Source: a virus. Taken from it: DNA of 64,000 bases. The notes beneath the pieces are model-generated. The model had not been told where the DNA came from, did not search any database, and saw nothing but the letters and a program-made list of their open reading frames with translations. The position numbers and the translations under genes were made by a program. Where the stretch lies: the IMG/VR virus record IMGVR_UViG_3300011116_000709, positions 3,973 through 67,972 of that record. One strand, 5' to 3'. Positions 4,977 to 62,390 of this stretch are shown piece by piece; position 1 is the first letter of the stretch, and each line of letters starts with the position of its first letter.

Positions 4977-7046
4977 TCAGCCGCCAACTTCGCTGAAGTT
5001 TACGCCTGTCTTGGTGGCGATAAAGTTCAACTGGATGAAGTTGATGCTGCGAGTGGGCTTGACGAAGATATCGGCTACGAACTCGTTACGATCAATGACT
5101 TCGCCGGTGTTGTTGGTTTCATCGCATACCACCTTGAAATCGGTGATGCCGCGACGCTGTTGAACCGTCTTGAGGAACGGAACCACCAAGTTCTTGAACT
5201 GTGCCCGTGTGAAGGCATCGTTCTGCTCAAACAGGAAGAACTTGCTTGCGGTGGCAATTGCTTTCTCAAGAATGATGAACAGGCGACGAACATTGATGCG
5301 ATCAAAGGCAGAGGGCTTGGTCTGCATGGTCTTATCACCGTACAGAATTACGCCTTCACCGGGGAACGATACGACAGGGTTTACCTGACGGGTATACAGT
5401 TCATCGCGGTGTGCTTCGCTGCTTGGGTTATAAGCCAACTTGACCACGCTCTTGACCTGTCCACGATTGAACCCTGCGGGCGAGAACCACGCTTCGTTGG
5501 TGAACTCGGTGCGAGCAACTAGACCTGCAATGTCTGCGTTGAGCGGAACAAGACGGACTAGGTTGTTGTAGGTGTCAAGTTGATACTTCCAACCGCTATC
5601 AAGTACAGCGTATGAAGAGTTTACATTGAATGTGCTGTCGCGGAAGGTCTTGATGTTGTTGAGAGCCTCGTATGGCAGTTTGTTCTCTACATTGCTTTGA
5701 GTTGGAGAGACGAATGCCATGCAGTCTAGACGCTTTTCACAAACTTGCTGAACGATGAGTTGAGCAAGAGTTGCAGAGGCGTTACCGCAAGGCAGTAGCG
5801 AAACATCAACGGTGTCTGCGTCTTGGAATAGACTCCAACCGCTAGACCAACGCTCGCTGTCGTTTGGTGCGGCAGATACAGCACCAGTTAGTCCTAGAGA
5901 ATTTACTCCCTGACCAACAGCGGAAGTTACGCTCAGGTCTGGTCCTATCAGATTCAGACTTGAGAAGTTTTGAGTTGCCTGATAACCCGCACCAGCATTG
6001 TTACCGTAAAGGTCTGCACAAAGTGCCCAAACATAATCGGACTGATCGTTGATTACTGTGCGATAGTAGTTGCTGCTTCCGTCAAACTTGCGAGCATCGG
6101 TTGCACGAGATAGACCCTCAAACTTCTCAAGAAGGGTGTTTGCTGTTCCAGTCCACTTTCCTTCTTTGTCTAGAACTAGAACATTGATTATGTCGTTTGC
6201 ACCACCTGCATCAGTAGCGTATGCAGATGTTGTTGCACCTGTTGAGACATACTTCGAATATACACTCTTGATGCTTAGTGTGTTGCCAGCAGCCTGAGTC
6301 TTTGGCAGGATGCTGTCGATAAGAACACGAACAACGGTTGGGCCACCTGATGCTAGAGTGTAACCACTGGTAACTCCGAAGAAGTCTCCAAATGTGGCAG
6401 TTACACCGAACAGTCCACCGCCAGTGGTTAGTGCTTTCTGCACTCCACTTACGGTTACTGTAGTGCCGTCTTCAAATACAATGTCGTCACCCTTGGCAAA
6501 GTACAGATATTTGCTGCTGGTTCCGGTGACGATATCCATATAAGTAGCACCAATGTTGGCGGCTGCACCTAGTGTATAACCAGTTGTGGTTCCGTTTCCG
6601 TTAGTGACTACTACCTTGATGCTGTTTCCAAGAACTCCCGGATACTTTGACGCAAAAAGCACACCGTTTGTAGCCTGTGTGTTTGCAGAAGCACCTTCGT
6701 TTGCATTGAAATCTGTAGTGTTATTGATGTCAAATGCACTCTGATATGTTGCACCACTCTTGGTTACATGAGAGTTCTTTGCGGCAGAACCAACTACACG
6801 CACCACTTGGCAGTTGTTGCCGTATTGCAGGAAGTTAGCCGCAGTGAAGAAGTCCACATAGTTGTTATTGTCGGGCTTCTGGAAAATGTTGGCTAGTTCA
6901 CGCTCATTGGCAACAGTCACGATTTCGTTGACTGGGCCCCAATGGAAATAACCCGCGAATCCACCGGGTGTGGTGGCTACAGCGGGAACGATTGTGGTCA
7001 GGTCGATTTCTTTGATGCTTACGCCGGGGCTTACTCTAAATCCCAT
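4977..7046 (-). CDS. gp18: Contractile tail sheath protein
   Basis: SPGVSIKEIDLT N-terminus; WFSPAGFNRG; SAFDRINVRRLF; KPTRSINFI.LNFIA. Confidence 0.98.
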   Translation of the reverse strand: MGFRVSPGVSIKEIDLTTIVPAVATTPGGFAGYFHWGPVNEIVTVANERELANIFQKPDNNNYVDFFTAANFLQYGNNCQVVRVVGSAAKNSHVTKSGATYQSAFDINNTTDFNANEGASANTQATNGVLFASKYPGVLGNSIKVVVTNGNGTTTGYTLGAAANIGATYMDIVTGTSSKYLYFAKGDDIVFEDGTTVTVSGVQKALTTGGGLFGVTATFGDFFGVTSGYTLASGGPTVVRVLIDSILPKTQAAGNTLSIKSVYSKYVSTGATTSAYATDAGGANDIINVLVLDKEGKWTGTANTLLEKFEGLSRATDARKFDGSSNYYRTVINDQSDYVWALCADLYGNNAGAGYQATQNFSSLNLIGPDLSVTSAVGQGVNSLGLTGAVSAAPNDSERWSSGWSLFQDADTVDVSLLPCGNASATLAQLIVQQVCEKRLDCMAFVSPTQSNVENKLPYEALNNIKTFRDSTFNVNSSYAVLDSGWKYQLDTYNNLVRLVPLNADIAGLVARTEFTNEAWFSPAGFNRGQVKSVVKLAYNPSSEAHRDELYTRQVNPVVSFPGEGVILYGDKTMQTKPSAFDRINVRRLFIILEKAIATASKFFLFEQNDAFTRAQFKNLVVPFLKTVQQRRGITDFKVVCDETNNTGEVIDRNEFVADIFVKPTRSINFIQLNFIATKTGVNFSEVGG

Positions 7047-7159
7047 TGTGGTGTCTCCTTCGTCTGTGAAGCACGGGGGTTTGGTGTCGTTACTTCTACT
7101 CTTATGTATTATTTGGATATTTCTGCCGTACCGCCCGACCCGTTCCCATATTTAGCCGT

Positions 7160-8797
7160 TCAGTCGCCCCAATTCCACGCCGTTCCGCTGCCGTCCGTGA
7201 ACGAAGTTGGGTCGCTTCCGTCGTCCACAAAGCCAAAAGGGGTCATTTCTTCTTCCAAATTTTTCATTTGGTCTTCGTACAGATCACGCCGAATATCGCT
7301 GCCCGTGATGTCCTTGAAGTACGCTTGGGTTGTGAGCCACCCAAACAGCACCAGCGTCATCACTAAATCGTCGTTGTGGTTGTCTTCGGCTTCGTAGGAA
7401 TCGCCTTTAGCCACAAACGAACAGAACTCGTCCACCACACCAAAGTCTTCAACAATCAGTTTAGTGTCTTCAATCAAATTTTTGAGAATGGCACACCCGA
7501 TACGCTTTACCGCTGTGGATGTCTTGACACCTTTCATAGCCGAGCCACCACGCCCGAAGCCACCGTTCACCACTTGCCCTTTGCGTCCCTGCATCTGGAC
7601 ATAGATGATGTTGTCGTATTCCATATCATCGTGGAGAATGTCTGCTATCTGCTGCCCGATGTCGTTGATCTCTACCAGTACGAATGCGTTGTTGTACTGC
7701 CGTGCCACAGGGTAGATGGCATTAGGATACAACATGGGAGCCAACTGGTTGTTGCGGAAGGTGGCTACGAGCCTGTACGGCATCTGTGTGACATCTATAA
7801 CGGTAAACGCATGGTAGTCCTGTCCCACACCACGAGAAGTGTCCACCACGGTCACATACTTGTGGTTAGGTTGTGGCTTGGCATATACCCGTAGCCCCTC
7901 ACTATTGAAATATTCAGGAGTGCGGTACACAAGACATTTTAGTTTTTCAGGATGGATCAGAGTGTGAACCGATCCCAAGAATTCAGTTTCAAACTCGGTG
8001 CGGAACTGCTCTTCAGAGGTGTTGGCAATGGTTTGCTTTTTCCATTCCTCGTCTCGTCCGGGTACATCGCTCCAATGCACCTCAATAGGATAGTATTCGT
8101 TCTTGCCTTCTTCGCCTGTTCTTTTATTTGCATTTACCCACAGGCGGTAGAACATGTTCAAGCCCTTTGGGGTTGACACAATAATCACTTTGGTTTCTTT
8201 ACCGCTTGTGATAGTGGGATACACGGACGAGAAAAACTCTTCTGCTACATTCTGTGGCACATACGCAAACTCGTCCAACATGATGCAGTTGTACGAACCA
8301 CCACGAACAGCAGATGACGAAGTAGCGGCTGCAAGCACTTTGGAGCCGTTTTCAAGCACAATTGAGCCTTTGTTCCATTCCACCACGCCCTGCTGCAACC
8401 ATGTGGGCAGATACTCGTAGGCTAGTTTTAGGCGACCAAGCAGTTCACGGGCAGTAGCCAGTTTGTTAGCGAGGATGGCTACACTCATGTTCTGATTGAA
8501 CAGGATATAGTGCAGCAGGAATGAAATCATGGTTGTAGACTTACCGCTCTGACGAGGCATCTTGCAGATCACGAAACGGTTCTTGTGAACTGCCTCAATC
8601 ATGTCCTCTTGGAACTCATACGGTTCAAACGGAACCAAGCCCTTGTCAAGCGACACAATTTTCACATAGTGCTTGATGAAATATAGAGGGTCTTGAGAAC
8701 ACTTCACATACTCCTCAATCTGCTTGGGAGTAAAGTTGATATTGACTCCAGCCGCTTTCAGGTTGGAGTTGCCAAGATACTTTTGACTCTTGTTCAT
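7160..8797 (-). CDS. gp17: Terminase large subunit
   Basis: PRQSGKST Walker A, MLDEFA Walker B, nuclease DDLVM motif; uninterrupted ORF. Confidence 0.98.
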   Translation of the reverse strand: MNKSQKYLGNSNLKAAGVNINFTPKQIEEYVKCSQDPLYFIKHYVKIVSLDKGLVPFEPYEFQEDMIEAVHKNRFVICKMPRQSGKSTTMISFLLHYILFNQNMSVAILANKLATARELLGRLKLAYEYLPTWLQQGVVEWNKGSIVLENGSKVLAAATSSSAVRGGSYNCIMLDEFAYVPQNVAEEFFSSVYPTITSGKETKVIIVSTPKGLNMFYRLWVNANKRTGEEGKNEYYPIEVHWSDVPGRDEEWKKQTIANTSEEQFRTEFETEFLGSVHTLIHPEKLKCLVYRTPEYFNSEGLRVYAKPQPNHKYVTVVDTSRGVGQDYHAFTVIDVTQMPYRLVATFRNNQLAPMLYPNAIYPVARQYNNAFVLVEINDIGQQIADILHDDMEYDNIIYVQMQGRKGQVVNGGFGRGGSAMKGVKTSTAVKRIGCAILKNLIEDTKLIVEDFGVVDEFCSFVAKGDSYEAEDNHNDDLVMTLVLFGWLTTQAYFKDITGSDIRRDLYEDQMKNLEEEMTPFGFVDDGSDPTSFTDGSGTAWNWGD

Positions 8798-61786: not shown

Positions 61787-62053
61787 TCAATATGCTATTA
61801 AAACCGACATTGGACTACTGCCGTAAGACGCACCCGATATACCCCAAACAGTAAGAGGAAATATTTCAGTAGTAGCCACACATACTCTGTTTGCTTCAGT
61901 AGCACCACTGGCTGTATAGGTGTATAAATCAACTGTGCAACCAGCACCACCGCCAGTAAAAATTACCGCTCTGTTGCCTTTTGGTATTCCAGTTACCAAT
62001 AAAGGCTGACCAGTAGTCCACGAATACTGTTGAAATCTGTGGTATATGTCCAT
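61787..62053 (-). CDS. Small paralogue 2 of tandem array
   Basis: MDIY, GNRAVIF, IFPLTVWGISG. Confidence 0.75.
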   Translation of the reverse strand: MDIYHRFQQYSWTTGQPLLVTGIPKGNRAVIFTGGGAGCTVDLYTYTASGATEANRVCVATTEIFPLTVWGISGASYGSSPMSVLIAY

Positions 62054-62054
62054 T

Positions 62055-62390
62055 TTAGAAATAGTAGTATAGTTGGTGTTGAGAAAGACCAGTAGATAAT
62101 GGGTCTAAATAAATAGTAGGGTTTCCGCTAACTCCTGCAATTTCTATTGGAAAATATTGAGAAGCACCCAATGGAATAGCAACTCTTTGGTAAAAGGTTA
62201 CGCCTCTTGCGTCCCTCAACAAAACATCAAATTGAGTTTTCCAATAGTAATTTTGCCCTGATGTGGTAGAACCACAAGTTATACAAAATCCTTTATGGTT
62301 TGGTGGAGCATCAGCACCAAAAGTTCCAGTCTGAACAAAACTGTGAACTTCTGATTTTGCGTTATGTACATGCCATGCGGATAAGGGCAT
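62055..62390 (-). CDS. Small paralogue 1 of tandem array
   Basis: MPLSAW start with SD AAGGAG; NHKGFCI, YFPIEIAGVSG. Confidence 0.7.
   Translation of the reverse strand: MPLSAWHVHNAKSEVHSFVQTGTFGADAPPNHKGFCITCGSTTSGQNYYWKTQFDVLLRDARGVTFYQRVAIPLGASQYFPIEIAGVSGNPTIYLDPLSTGLSQHQLYYYF

Follow-up and report, generated by a model that had tools for sequence, protein, structure and literature searches.

A Gly-hydrophobic-[Thr/Ser/Cys]-[Ala/Gly] motif in virion proteins of an uncultured T4-like phage lineage as a candidate glycosylation sequon

The DNA analyzed here, subsequently designated the window, is a stretch of 64,000 nucleotides from IMG/VR virus record IMGVR_UViG_3300011116_000709 (positions 3,973 to 67,972 of that record) and represents the virion module of an uncultured T4-like myovirus, as judged from PHROG matches and from portal and large terminase subunit (TerL) trees. 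Many of its virion proteins are enriched for a short motif, which an initial annotation of the window had written as G-x-[TSC] and regarded as a possible site of post-translational modification. The motif could be refined to G-hydrophobic-[Thr/Ser/Cys]-[Ala/Gly]; it is real, ordered and specific for a nucleophilic side chain at its third position. We propose it as a candidate sequon for O- or S-glycosylation, an assignment that appears plausible, if not quite probable.

An ordered G-x-T motif is enriched over shuffled controls

The initial annotation had listed the sheath, the gp15-like protein, baseplate wedge proteins, fibres and several open reading frames (ORFs) as carriers of densely recurring G-x-[TSC]. 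Indeed, raw densities amount to 2.1-5.4 per 100 amino acids (aa) in the listed proteins as compared with 0-0.9 in portal, TerL, scaffold and gp32, which the initial annotation, referring to the terminase as such, had named as motif-poor together with the enzymes. This scarcity does not extend to the small terminase subunit TerS (window 8794-9279, minus strand), a non-virion protein in which G-x-[TSC] is enriched (5 vs. 1.7 expected, z 3.0). About half of the raw density contrast is due to composition, the listed proteins being rich in Gly, Thr and Ser, as determined by shuffling. The 18 listed proteins together span 10,570 aa and contain 197 G-x-T, while 108.0 occurrences are expected from whole-protein shuffles (z 9.2) and 114.0 from shuffles within 20-aa blocks (z 8.9), which bears out the recurrence noted initially. 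The shuffle control proposed at that time leaves an excess of z 8-12 over whole-protein, 20-aa and 10-aa block shuffles. Among all 400 residue pairs of the type a-x-b, G-x-T ranks first in these proteins. G-x-C is likewise over-represented (16 vs. 6.7-7.9 expected, z 3.3-3.9); G-x-S is not significantly enriched overall (123 vs. 107-113, z 1.1-1.6). No excess of G-x-T is detectable in the 39 other proteins of the window (9,337 aa; 39 vs. 44.6 expected).

The signal depends on spacing, as the one-residue gap alone is enriched and gaps of 0 and 2-5 residues are not. At the DNA level, the pattern GGNNNNAC was counted 197 times in the coding frame vs. 10-42 times in each of the five other frames, and the codons used for Gly and Thr inside the motif resemble those used outside. 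With the pattern restricted to one frame, the coding one, and codon usage ordinary, a DNA-level cause was rejected. Recent paralogy was also dismissed as the source of the motif, because BLAST pairs only the 1031-aa and 821-aa fibres. Collagen-like G-x-y runs in the window reach 4-5 triplets at most, only 7 pairs of successive G-x-T sites lie exactly 3 residues apart, and the collagen family PF01391 was unmatched among the window proteins scanned against Pfam, i.e. long G-x-y runs were not found in the window.

The third position is specific for Thr, Ser and Cys

In 14 virion proteins the motif G-phi-[TSC]-[AG], in which phi denotes a hydrophobic residue, occurs 65 times, whereas 15.6, 18.5 and 19.8 occurrences are expected from global, 20-aa block and 10-aa block shuffles, respectively. 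The reverse and two scrambled orders are unenriched (0.77-1.14x). Ile, Val and Ala are preferred in the middle, and Ala, Leu, Phe, Tyr and Gly as the residue following the third position. At position 3 of G-phi-Z, Cys is enriched 4.4x, Thr 2.3x and Ser 1.6x, with Val at 1.0x; in G-phi-Z-[AG] the corresponding values are 9.0x for Cys, 3.3x for Thr and 1.9x for Ser, with Val at 0.6x, Ala at 0.5x and Ile at 0.1x. Ser, Thr or Cys (12, 12 and 7 sites, respectively) occupy this position in 31 of 40 sites of the form G-phi-Z-[AG]-[AG], which is the surrounding looked for in a Gly-flanked acceptor.

The repeated use of Cys, to which the initial annotation had drawn attention, is confirmed: 16 of 66 Cys residues lie in G-x-C, and 7 Cys in five proteins without mutual BLAST similarity match G-phi-C-[AG]-[AG], a pattern chosen post hoc from the data, as compared with 0.084 expected and a count of 7 in 0 of 5000 shuffles. 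Its further conclusion, that position 3 needs a hydroxyl or thiol group, is upheld by the raised frequencies of Cys, Thr and Ser, by the low ones of Val, Ala and Ile, and by the cultured T4-like controls listed below, in which a Thr/Ser/Cys preference at position 3 of G-phi-Z is absent. The requirement stands because Val and Ile are excluded, which a plain preference for residues starting a strand would admit.

The motif is specific for the lineage and was gained even on conserved folds

Comparison with orthologues from other T4-like phages, also suggested by the initial annotation, separates the lineage from cultured phages. Six motif-bearing T4-like genomes (the window and the relatives G009, G003, G007, G008 and G006) were compared with five cultured T4-like controls, i.e. 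Sinorhizobium phage phiN3, Stenotrophomonas phage DLP_6, S-IOM18, T4 and nt-1. Orthologues of gp7, gp8 and the sheath are represented in the control modules of phiN3, DLP_6 and S-IOM18, and a VrlC orthologue in the first two of these. In the tail, baseplate and fibre modules of the six lineage genomes, G-phi-[TSC]-[AG] is enriched 3.1-6.3x (z 7.7-12.8) and G-x-T 1.5-2.2x, whereas the cultured modules yield 1.1-1.6x (z at most 2.4) and 0.74-1.19x, respectively. The control motif G-phi-[VIA] remains at 0.76-1.08x in all modules of both groups. T4 gp36/gp37 do show a G-x-T excess (25 vs. 13.5), but with polar middle residues and no preference for G-phi-[TSC]. In columns alignable by BLAST to phiN3 or DLP_6 (two comparisons summed), the window has 67 G-x-T as compared with 23 in the controls, 4 of them shared. 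The density per 100 aa is 2.37 in lineage-specific, unalignable parts vs. 0.92 in alignable parts. As far as the controls go, the excess is not a property of the folds; the motif was gained even on conserved folds.

The tail sheath (gp18-like, 689 aa; window 4977-7046, minus strand; phrog_23, 2e-119) illustrates this gain. It carries 13 G-x-T vs. 5.8 expected (z 3.2), 11 of them within residues 98-270 and one each at 385 and 633, and it aligns over its full length with the sheaths of phiN3 and DLP_6, which have 3 G-x-T at the matching columns. Over 81 sheaths (that of the window and 80 orthologues) 833 G-x-T were counted vs. 469 expected. Within the variable region of the sheath individual sites turn over, 45 alignment columns having the motif in at least one sequence and 6 in half or more, and the count per sequence is steady (7.6 +/- 1.8). 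Exchange of Thr by Ser is raised at motif sites in this region (13.8% vs. 9.6%) and at single columns. Among 18 orthologues of ORF 49532, with identities of 56-95%, Thr makes up 83% of motif Thr columns as compared with 64% of other Thr columns, and Gly makes up 89% of motif Gly columns as compared with 75%; sites 301 and 139 switch between Ser and Cys, and two further sites between Ser and Thr. Likewise, ten protein pairs between the window and G003 retained 76 of 160 motif Thr vs. 222 of 692 other Thr. In one T4-like genome of the comparison, G007, two neighbouring sheath paralogues of 916 and 635 aa were observed (115150-117900 and 117912-119819).

Most of the listed carriers are individually enriched

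Among the remaining carriers listed initially, most proved enriched by themselves; the 821-aa fibre, the gp8-like protein and ORF 51275 did not, and the ORFs of a small array are individually marginal. The gp15-like tail terminator (284 aa; 9291-10145, minus strand) matches phrog_227 over residues 2-209 only, and all of its 7 G-x-T (2.0 expected, z 4.2) lie in a C-terminal extension, residues 220-281, with 0 of 7 inside the part alignable to gp15 of phiN3 or DLP_6; its orthologues in G002, G003, G005 and G009 are enriched as well. A similar picture emerged for the gp7-like baseplate wedge protein (969 aa; 31113-34022, minus strand; phrog_17744, PF23786), with 19 G-x-T vs. 9.5 expected (z 3.3), 18-19 of the 19 outside the part alignable to gp7 of phiN3 or DLP_6. 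Its neighbour, the gp8-like wedge protein (799 aa; 28701-31100, minus strand; phrog_438), has a weak excess (G-x-T 10 vs. 7.9, z 0.9; G-x-[TSC] 17 vs. 15.6), its density per 100 aa being 1.67-2.13 in parts unalignable to the controls vs. 0.64-1.00 in alignable parts. The third wedge protein, gp6, is not individually enriched for G-x-[TSC] (9 vs. 8.6).

Four fibre-like ORFs at 12108-23428 carry little or no family signal and adjoin a DUF4815/VrlC-like protein, all on the minus strand. They comprise a 596-aa protein with a concanavalin A-like (Laminin_G_3) domain (12108-13898; PF13385, 2.6e-13; G-x-T 15 vs. 6.1, z 4.0), which has a G-V-C-G-G site at residue 380, a 1235-aa protein without match in PHROG, Pfam or NCBIfam (13912-17619; 21 vs. 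10.6, z 3.6), the 821-aa fibre with a tail-collar domain (17639-20104; PF07484, 1.4e-10) and the 1031-aa fibre (20333-23428; 26 vs. 13.8, z 3.9), whose relation to the 821-aa fibre is the sole detectable paralogy. Although rich in Gly, Thr and Ser, the 821-aa fibre has no excess (G-x-T 11 vs. 11.3; G-x-[TSC] 22 vs. 20.9). The DUF4815/VrlC-like virion protein (1693 aa; 23609-28690; PF16075, 1.9e-48; phrog_358) contains 26 G-x-T vs. 15.8 expected (z 3.0) and two G-V-C-A-G sites; its orthologues in phiN3 (16 vs. 12.7) and DLP_6 (9 vs. 11.5) are unenriched.

The highest motif density was found in ORF 49532 (577 aa; 49532-51265, plus strand), probably a fibre or spike, which has no family match in PHROG, Pfam or NCBIfam. 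Its G-x-T (22 vs. 8.6, z 5.5) are spaced by about 10-15 residues over residues 90-245, and its homologues in G006, G007 and G008 are also enriched. The ESM Atlas returned unnamed viral clusters only, with weak fibre matches at 0.80 that serve as leads, and an AlphaFold2 (AF2) model computed from 19 homologues was unusable (predicted local distance difference test, pLDDT, 29.7). The adjacent ORF 51275 (471 aa; 51275-52690, plus strand; weak DNRLRE match at 6.5e-5, below the cut-off) has a weak excess (G-x-T 10 vs. 6.0, z 1.8; G-x-[TSC] 15 vs. 11.3). Five tandem small ORFs of 83-121 aa (60955-62420, minus strand), without match in PHROG, Pfam and NCBIfam, contain 4-6 G-x-[TSC] each vs. 1.9-2.5 expected (z 1.8-3.2). 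Three of these ORFs start with M-D-x-Y, and mutual BLAST similarity was not detected at 1e-3.

The tape-measure-like protein (45837-48134, plus strand), with 15% Gly and Gly-rich runs, is depleted of the motif (7 vs. 14.8, z -2.4). The tube shows no excess of G-x-T (0 vs. 1.2) and the capsid protein a mild one (7 vs. 3.5).

The AF2 model of the sheath is confident for residues ~90-400 (block pLDDT 72-94, mostly >83). Of the 12 G-x-T sites modelled, Gly is in coil in 9 and Thr in a strand in 6, a loop followed by Gly and a strand start being typical. These loop-to-strand junctions speak against the surface loops expected by the initial annotation.

Relatives of the phage encode a candidate enzyme within a glycan island

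The window shows T4-like synteny, with sheath, terminase, neck, baseplate wedge, hub, tube and portal genes. PHROG matches comprise scaffold, protease region, portal, sheath, TerL, TerS, gp15, gp14 and gp13, gp8-, gp7- and gp6-like wedge proteins, gp25, gp5, hub, tube, tube-cap, tape-measure-like protein and gp32. The portal is 53% identical to cyanophage portals, and the nearest cultured sheaths are those of phiN3 (46%) and DLP_6 (45%). The portal tree places the window as sister to G005 and joins both with G009 (support 94/98); the TerL tree unites the same three (91/94). G009 is a complete genome of 147,410 bp with terminal repeats, whereas the contig of the window is a fragment of 67,972 bases with a completeness rating of 37%. 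A sheath search yielded 2278 proteins at E <= 1e-20 among 8000 candidates scored, by which measure the lineage is common in metagenomes.

Genes for glycosyltransferases of family 2 (GT2) were found in three of the five long relatives searched first (G001, G002 and G005); the contigs of G003 and G004 do not reach the region concerned, in the case of G004 as judged from coordinates. A profile of the enzyme detected one copy of GT2 followed by tetratricopeptide repeats (GT2-TPR) in each of G006-G010. It is present in all five clade contigs that cover the region (G001, G002, G005, G009 and G010), and in G005 and G009 it lies ~28-29 kb past the capsid gene (~29 kb in G005). By phylogenetic bracketing, the phage of the window would carry the enzyme, too. 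The enzyme search yielded 133 viral stretches; the enzyme matches 9 of 50,697 phage records, and the cultured T4-like controls are not among them.

The product comprises 402-443 aa with an N-terminal GT2 domain and subsequent TPR. The gene at L103:1480-2772 matches PF00535 at 1.2e-11 and TPR models weakly, and a D-A-D-D sequence is invariant in an alignment of 31 sequences; an architecture of GT-A domain, DxD motif and TPR was thus observed, in relatives only. A profile of these 31 sequences detects among solved structures GmaR (8.7e-14), SunS (8.5e-10) and ThuS (3.2e-9), the next glycosyltransferase following at 3.7e-4; profile positions 3-210 align with SunS residues 55-263. The best NCBIfam match is the SunS family TIGR04195, to which the N-terminal 90 residues match with 28.9 bits (E 5.1e-7). 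Membership in this equivalog family was rejected, since the score is far under the cut-off of 350. In the ESM Atlas, GT2 clusters were found, some with TPR and one automatically named SunS family, which we treat as leads only. Prediction of a complex between GT2-TPR, from its alignment, and residues 205-284 of the gp15 tail scored 0.23, as compared with a mark of 0.32, and speaks neither for nor against an interaction.

In the sister genomes G005 and G009 the gene resides in an island of multiple glycosyltransferases. That of G005 encodes at least 6, i.e. GT2-TPR, a second GT2, a GT47/RXYLT1-like protein, a DXD sugar-binding transferase, GT25 and a GT10 fucosyltransferase, along with two or three nucleoside diphosphate (NDP)-sugar epimerases/dehydratases and one methyltransferase. 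The same island contains ribB (3,4-dihydroxy-2-butanone-4-phosphate synthase; G005 33640-34281, PF00926 at 3.8e-72). A few kb away, both genomes encode a Mom-family protein (PF25680; G005 47846-48775, G009 73528-74448), hinting at DNA modification in the clade; this protein contains 5 G-phi-[TSC] vs. 1.0 expected.

The enzyme family is linked to G-x-T substrates and to known protein glycosyltransferases

Homologues of GT2-TPR are widespread in bacteria, including Streptomyces, Bacillus, Chlamydiae, Proteobacteria, Clostridia and others (contigs L244-L323). In 31 of 80 bacterial loci with enzyme homologues, a Thr-rich collagen-like run, defined as at least 8 G-x-y triplets of which at least half have Thr as third residue, is located at most 3 kb from the gene; just 3 further loci possess one at 3-8 kb but none closer, despite the larger number of bases scanned there. 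The loci represent several bacterial phyla. This suggests that enzyme and substrate are generally paired beyond the SgtA-BclA3 pair of Clostridioides difficile, the tested precedent. In G008 the enzyme gene abuts two ORFs with collagen repeats (PF01391), and in jumbo phage Tunturi_5 a distance of 3.7 kb separates it from a fibre containing runs of (GPT/GAT)n. As far as gene neighbourhood tells, the enzyme family is tied to G-x-T substrates, which match the first three positions of the motif.

Members of the enzyme group attach sugar to Thr, Ser or Cys neighbouring Gly (PMC7157674, PMC6405829). SgtA consists of a GT-A domain and four TPR, and its gene is directly upstream of bclA3; within GPT triplets it attaches beta-O-linked N-acetylglucosamine (GlcNAc) to Thr and tolerates Ser as well, and extension of the glycan takes place in vivo (PMC7157674). 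The phage enzyme shares with SgtA (358 aa), as the latter is described, the order of GT-A and TPR. The parallel extends to an acceptor Thr two residues past Gly, to the tolerance for Ser, to the extension of the first SgtA sugar by other enzymes and to the pairing with a gene for a G-x-T-rich protein, as in the bacterial loci. However, SgtA acts on a long GPT run of BclA3, a collagen-like protein of the spore, whereas the sites in the window are dispersed on a phage virion and have a hydrophobic middle residue as well as Ala or Gly after the acceptor.

SunS, ThuS and PalS glycosylate Cys within a Gly-Cys-Gly-Gly/Ser loop, ThuS also Ser, and glycocins bear sugars on Cys, Ser or Thr (PMC6405829). 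The modification of a Gly-flanked Cys parallels G-phi-C-[GA]-[GA] in the window, and SunS and ThuS, together with GmaR, are the best matches to the phage enzyme among solved and curated proteins. In contrast to the window proteins, the glycocins on which they act are small, secreted and modified at one or two sites, and in the known motif Gly directly precedes Cys instead of lying two positions before it. GmaR of Listeria, the best solved match, places GlcNAc on flagellin through its N-terminal domain, to which a TPR domain is joined (PMC9638930). It resembles the phage enzyme in this domain order, and it glycosylates, in the cytoplasm, the exposed part of a structural protein that polymerises; it differs in its size of 637 aa and in its anti-repressor domain (PMC9638930).

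Discussion

An order- and lineage-specific motif that outer tail proteins have gained, conserved folds included, calls for a reader peculiar to the lineage, and the SgtA/SunS/GmaR-like enzyme of the sister genomes is the sole reader candidate with any link to the motif. In the proposed mechanism, G-phi-[Thr/Ser/Cys]-[Ala/Gly] would serve as acceptor motif at exposed loop-to-strand junctions of outer tail proteins, so as to mark the outer sheath domain, the gp15 tail, the periphery of gp7 and gp8, the DUF4815 protein and the fibres. A cytoplasmic enzyme of the GT-A and TPR type, encoded by the phage, would in the course of infection attach a first sugar to the hydroxyl group of Thr or Ser or to the thiol of Cys. 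The other glycosyltransferases of the island and its NDP-sugar enzymes may extend this sugar, and a sugar-coated tail would result. Both the action on dispersed sites and the extension are steps that we infer. Tentatively, and with more reserve than the assignment of the motif itself, we suggest that a widespread uncultured T4-like lineage coats sheath, neck, baseplate periphery and fibres with O-linked and, at Cys, S-linked glycans, written by an SgtA/SunS-like GT-A-TPR enzyme and extended by at least 5 further glycosyltransferases of the island.

Several observations weigh against glycosylation of the dispersed sites. A GT2 gene was found neither in the window nor in its 67,972-base contig. 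This agrees with the statement of the initial annotation that the window lacks a modifying enzyme, and the reason is that the contig ends ~3 kb beyond the capsid gene. The usual partner of the enzyme is a collagen-like run rather than dispersed sites. In Tunturi_5, an independent lineage whose 28 annotated virion proteins have 163 G-x-T vs. 145.3 and 14 G-phi-[TSC]-[AG] vs. 22.7 expected once collagen runs are removed, the enzyme is present without the dispersed motif, and therefore the one does not entail the other; of the two chemistries considered initially, glycosylation gains indirect support from the enzyme and island of the relatives and loses from this case. The clade itself has a collagen-like gene (G001 46395-48170, G002 37357-40797, G005 57987-59657, G009 84317-86542) for a protein with 53-56 mostly charged G-x-y triplets and, in the G009 copy, also GPT runs, which could be the sole substrate of the enzyme. 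In G006, the G-x-T count of a large ORF next to the enzyme gene stems from ten TIG domains. The T4-like lineages with the glycosyltransferase may form one clade (TerL support 89/89; portal unresolved), and therefore the correlation of enzyme and motif may reflect a single event or shared ancestry. Alternatively, DNA or host-surface glycans could be the target of the island; glycosyltransferases of phages acting in DNA hypermodification have been described (10.1101/2023.12.21.572611). In the ten pairs between the window and G003, Thr-to-Ser exchange is not raised at motif sites overall (11% vs. 13%). Avoidance of the motif in non-virion proteins is absent, the genomes with the enzyme being at 0.93-1.21x and the controls at 0.70-1.57x. 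Finally, the loop-to-strand sites of the sheath model represent a common turn-to-strand setting, which does not settle the question.

This setting is also what would be expected if the motif were an unmodified, lineage-specific element of structure or assembly, i.e. a turn Gly followed by a strand starting with hydrophobic-Thr and reused in beta-rich decoration domains and fibres, with GT2-TPR serving only the collagen-like fibre of the clade or another target. We regard this as doubtful, yet far from negligible. Consistent with it are the higher density in lineage-specific than in alignable parts (2.37 vs. 0.92 per 100 aa), the spacing of ~12 residues in ORF 49532, which is typical of repetitive fibre folds, the Ig-like TIG repeats and collagen runs that explain the excess in some neighbours of enzyme genes, the case of Tunturi_5, the collagen-like gene of the clade, and the G-x-T excess of T4 gp36/gp37 (25 vs. 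13.5), which exists without any protein glycosyltransferase. However, the sites in gp36/gp37 are polar-middled and lack the G-phi-[TSC] preference, the orthologous folds of five cultured T4-like phages have no excess, and the fully alignable sheath has 13 sites vs. 3. In addition, position 3 bars Val, Ile and Ala, which would be acceptable at a strand start, yet admits Cys, and apart from the pair of 1031-aa and 821-aa fibres the enriched proteins share no detectable homology. That composition or chance in Gly/Thr/Ser-rich proteins produced the excess is hardly credible: half of the raw density contrast is indeed compositional, and the 821-aa fibre and the gp8-like protein are without excess, but the shuffles at z 8-12 refute this explanation, reversed and scrambled motifs are unenriched, the signal appears in the coding frame alone, and it is repeated in 81 sheath orthologues and 19 homologues of ORF 49532 (those of the window included).

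The lineage restriction and strict order call for a specific reader of the motif, which might also be another lineage- or host-specific one, such as another enzyme of the island, a modification system of the host or a decoration or chaperone protein binding the motif, or the hydroxyl or thiol might undergo another chemistry such as acylation or phosphorylation. The island, with several further transferases and a methyltransferase, would offer candidates, but none besides GT2-TPR is linked to G-x-T or Gly-flanked Cys, and we consider such a reader unlikely. YcaO-type cyclodehydration of Cys, Ser and Thr in virion proteins, the second chemistry put forward initially, or another heterocyclisation as in peptides made by the ribosome and modified after translation (RiPPs), would match the Thr/Ser/Cys specificity and the neighbouring glycines and nothing more. 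YcaO (PF02624) was found in none of five related genomes including the complete G009, as compared with 5 of 14 control genomes, in a search that did not include the contig of the window; radical SAM proteins (PF04055) were absent from the same number of related genomes, again including G009, and matched in control genomes as expected. This chemistry is disfavoured to the point of being most improbable.

Virus-encoded glycosyltransferases decorate virion proteins of mycobacteriophages and giant viruses, the sites in mycobacteriophages being the C-termini of capsid and tail-tube proteins. The window differs from these in that its tube has no excess of the motif and its capsid a mild one only. 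We know of no T4-like phage with glycosylated tail proteins, and a literature search, with supplementary files outside its reach, found no paper on the motif or on glycosylated T4-like tails. If the proposed coat exists, hundreds of glycans would cover the outer tail of each particle, the sheath subunit of the window alone having 13 G-x-T sites, and the coat could affect how the particles adsorb, how stable they are, how they are grazed or attacked by enzymes and how host surface defences recognise them. A glycan coat defined by a sequon would be without precedent on a contractile phage tail, and its S-glycosylation at Cys would be the first on a large structural protein. Folded virion proteins would join collagen-like repeats, flagellin and small peptides in the substrate range of enzymes of the SgtA/SunS/GmaR kind, and a simple sequence rule would predict glycosylated phage proteins from metagenomes. 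Even if unmodified, a lineage- and order-specific short motif gained on conserved folds demands explanation.

Other genes of the window

Outside the virion genes, the window encodes a short PurA-like adenylosuccinate synthetase (330 aa; 56708-57700, minus strand; PF00709 at 3e-81), which scores 264 bits with the NCBIfam PurA model (cut-off 402) and 89 bits with the PurZ model (cut-off 300). Two genes away lies a gene for a protein of the inosine monophosphate (IMP) dehydrogenase/guanosine monophosphate (GMP) reductase family (59316-60377, minus strand); by their family matches, the two appear to form a pair serving purine metabolism in a T4-like phage. An ORF of 141 aa with 21% Gly and no family match (53887-54312, minus strand) is 72-78% identical to its counterparts in G001 and G003. 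A protein of the S-adenosylmethionine lyase family (286 aa; 54490-55350, minus strand; DUF3293, PF23780 at 2.1e-11) is conserved at 72-84% identity in G001, G003 and G009.

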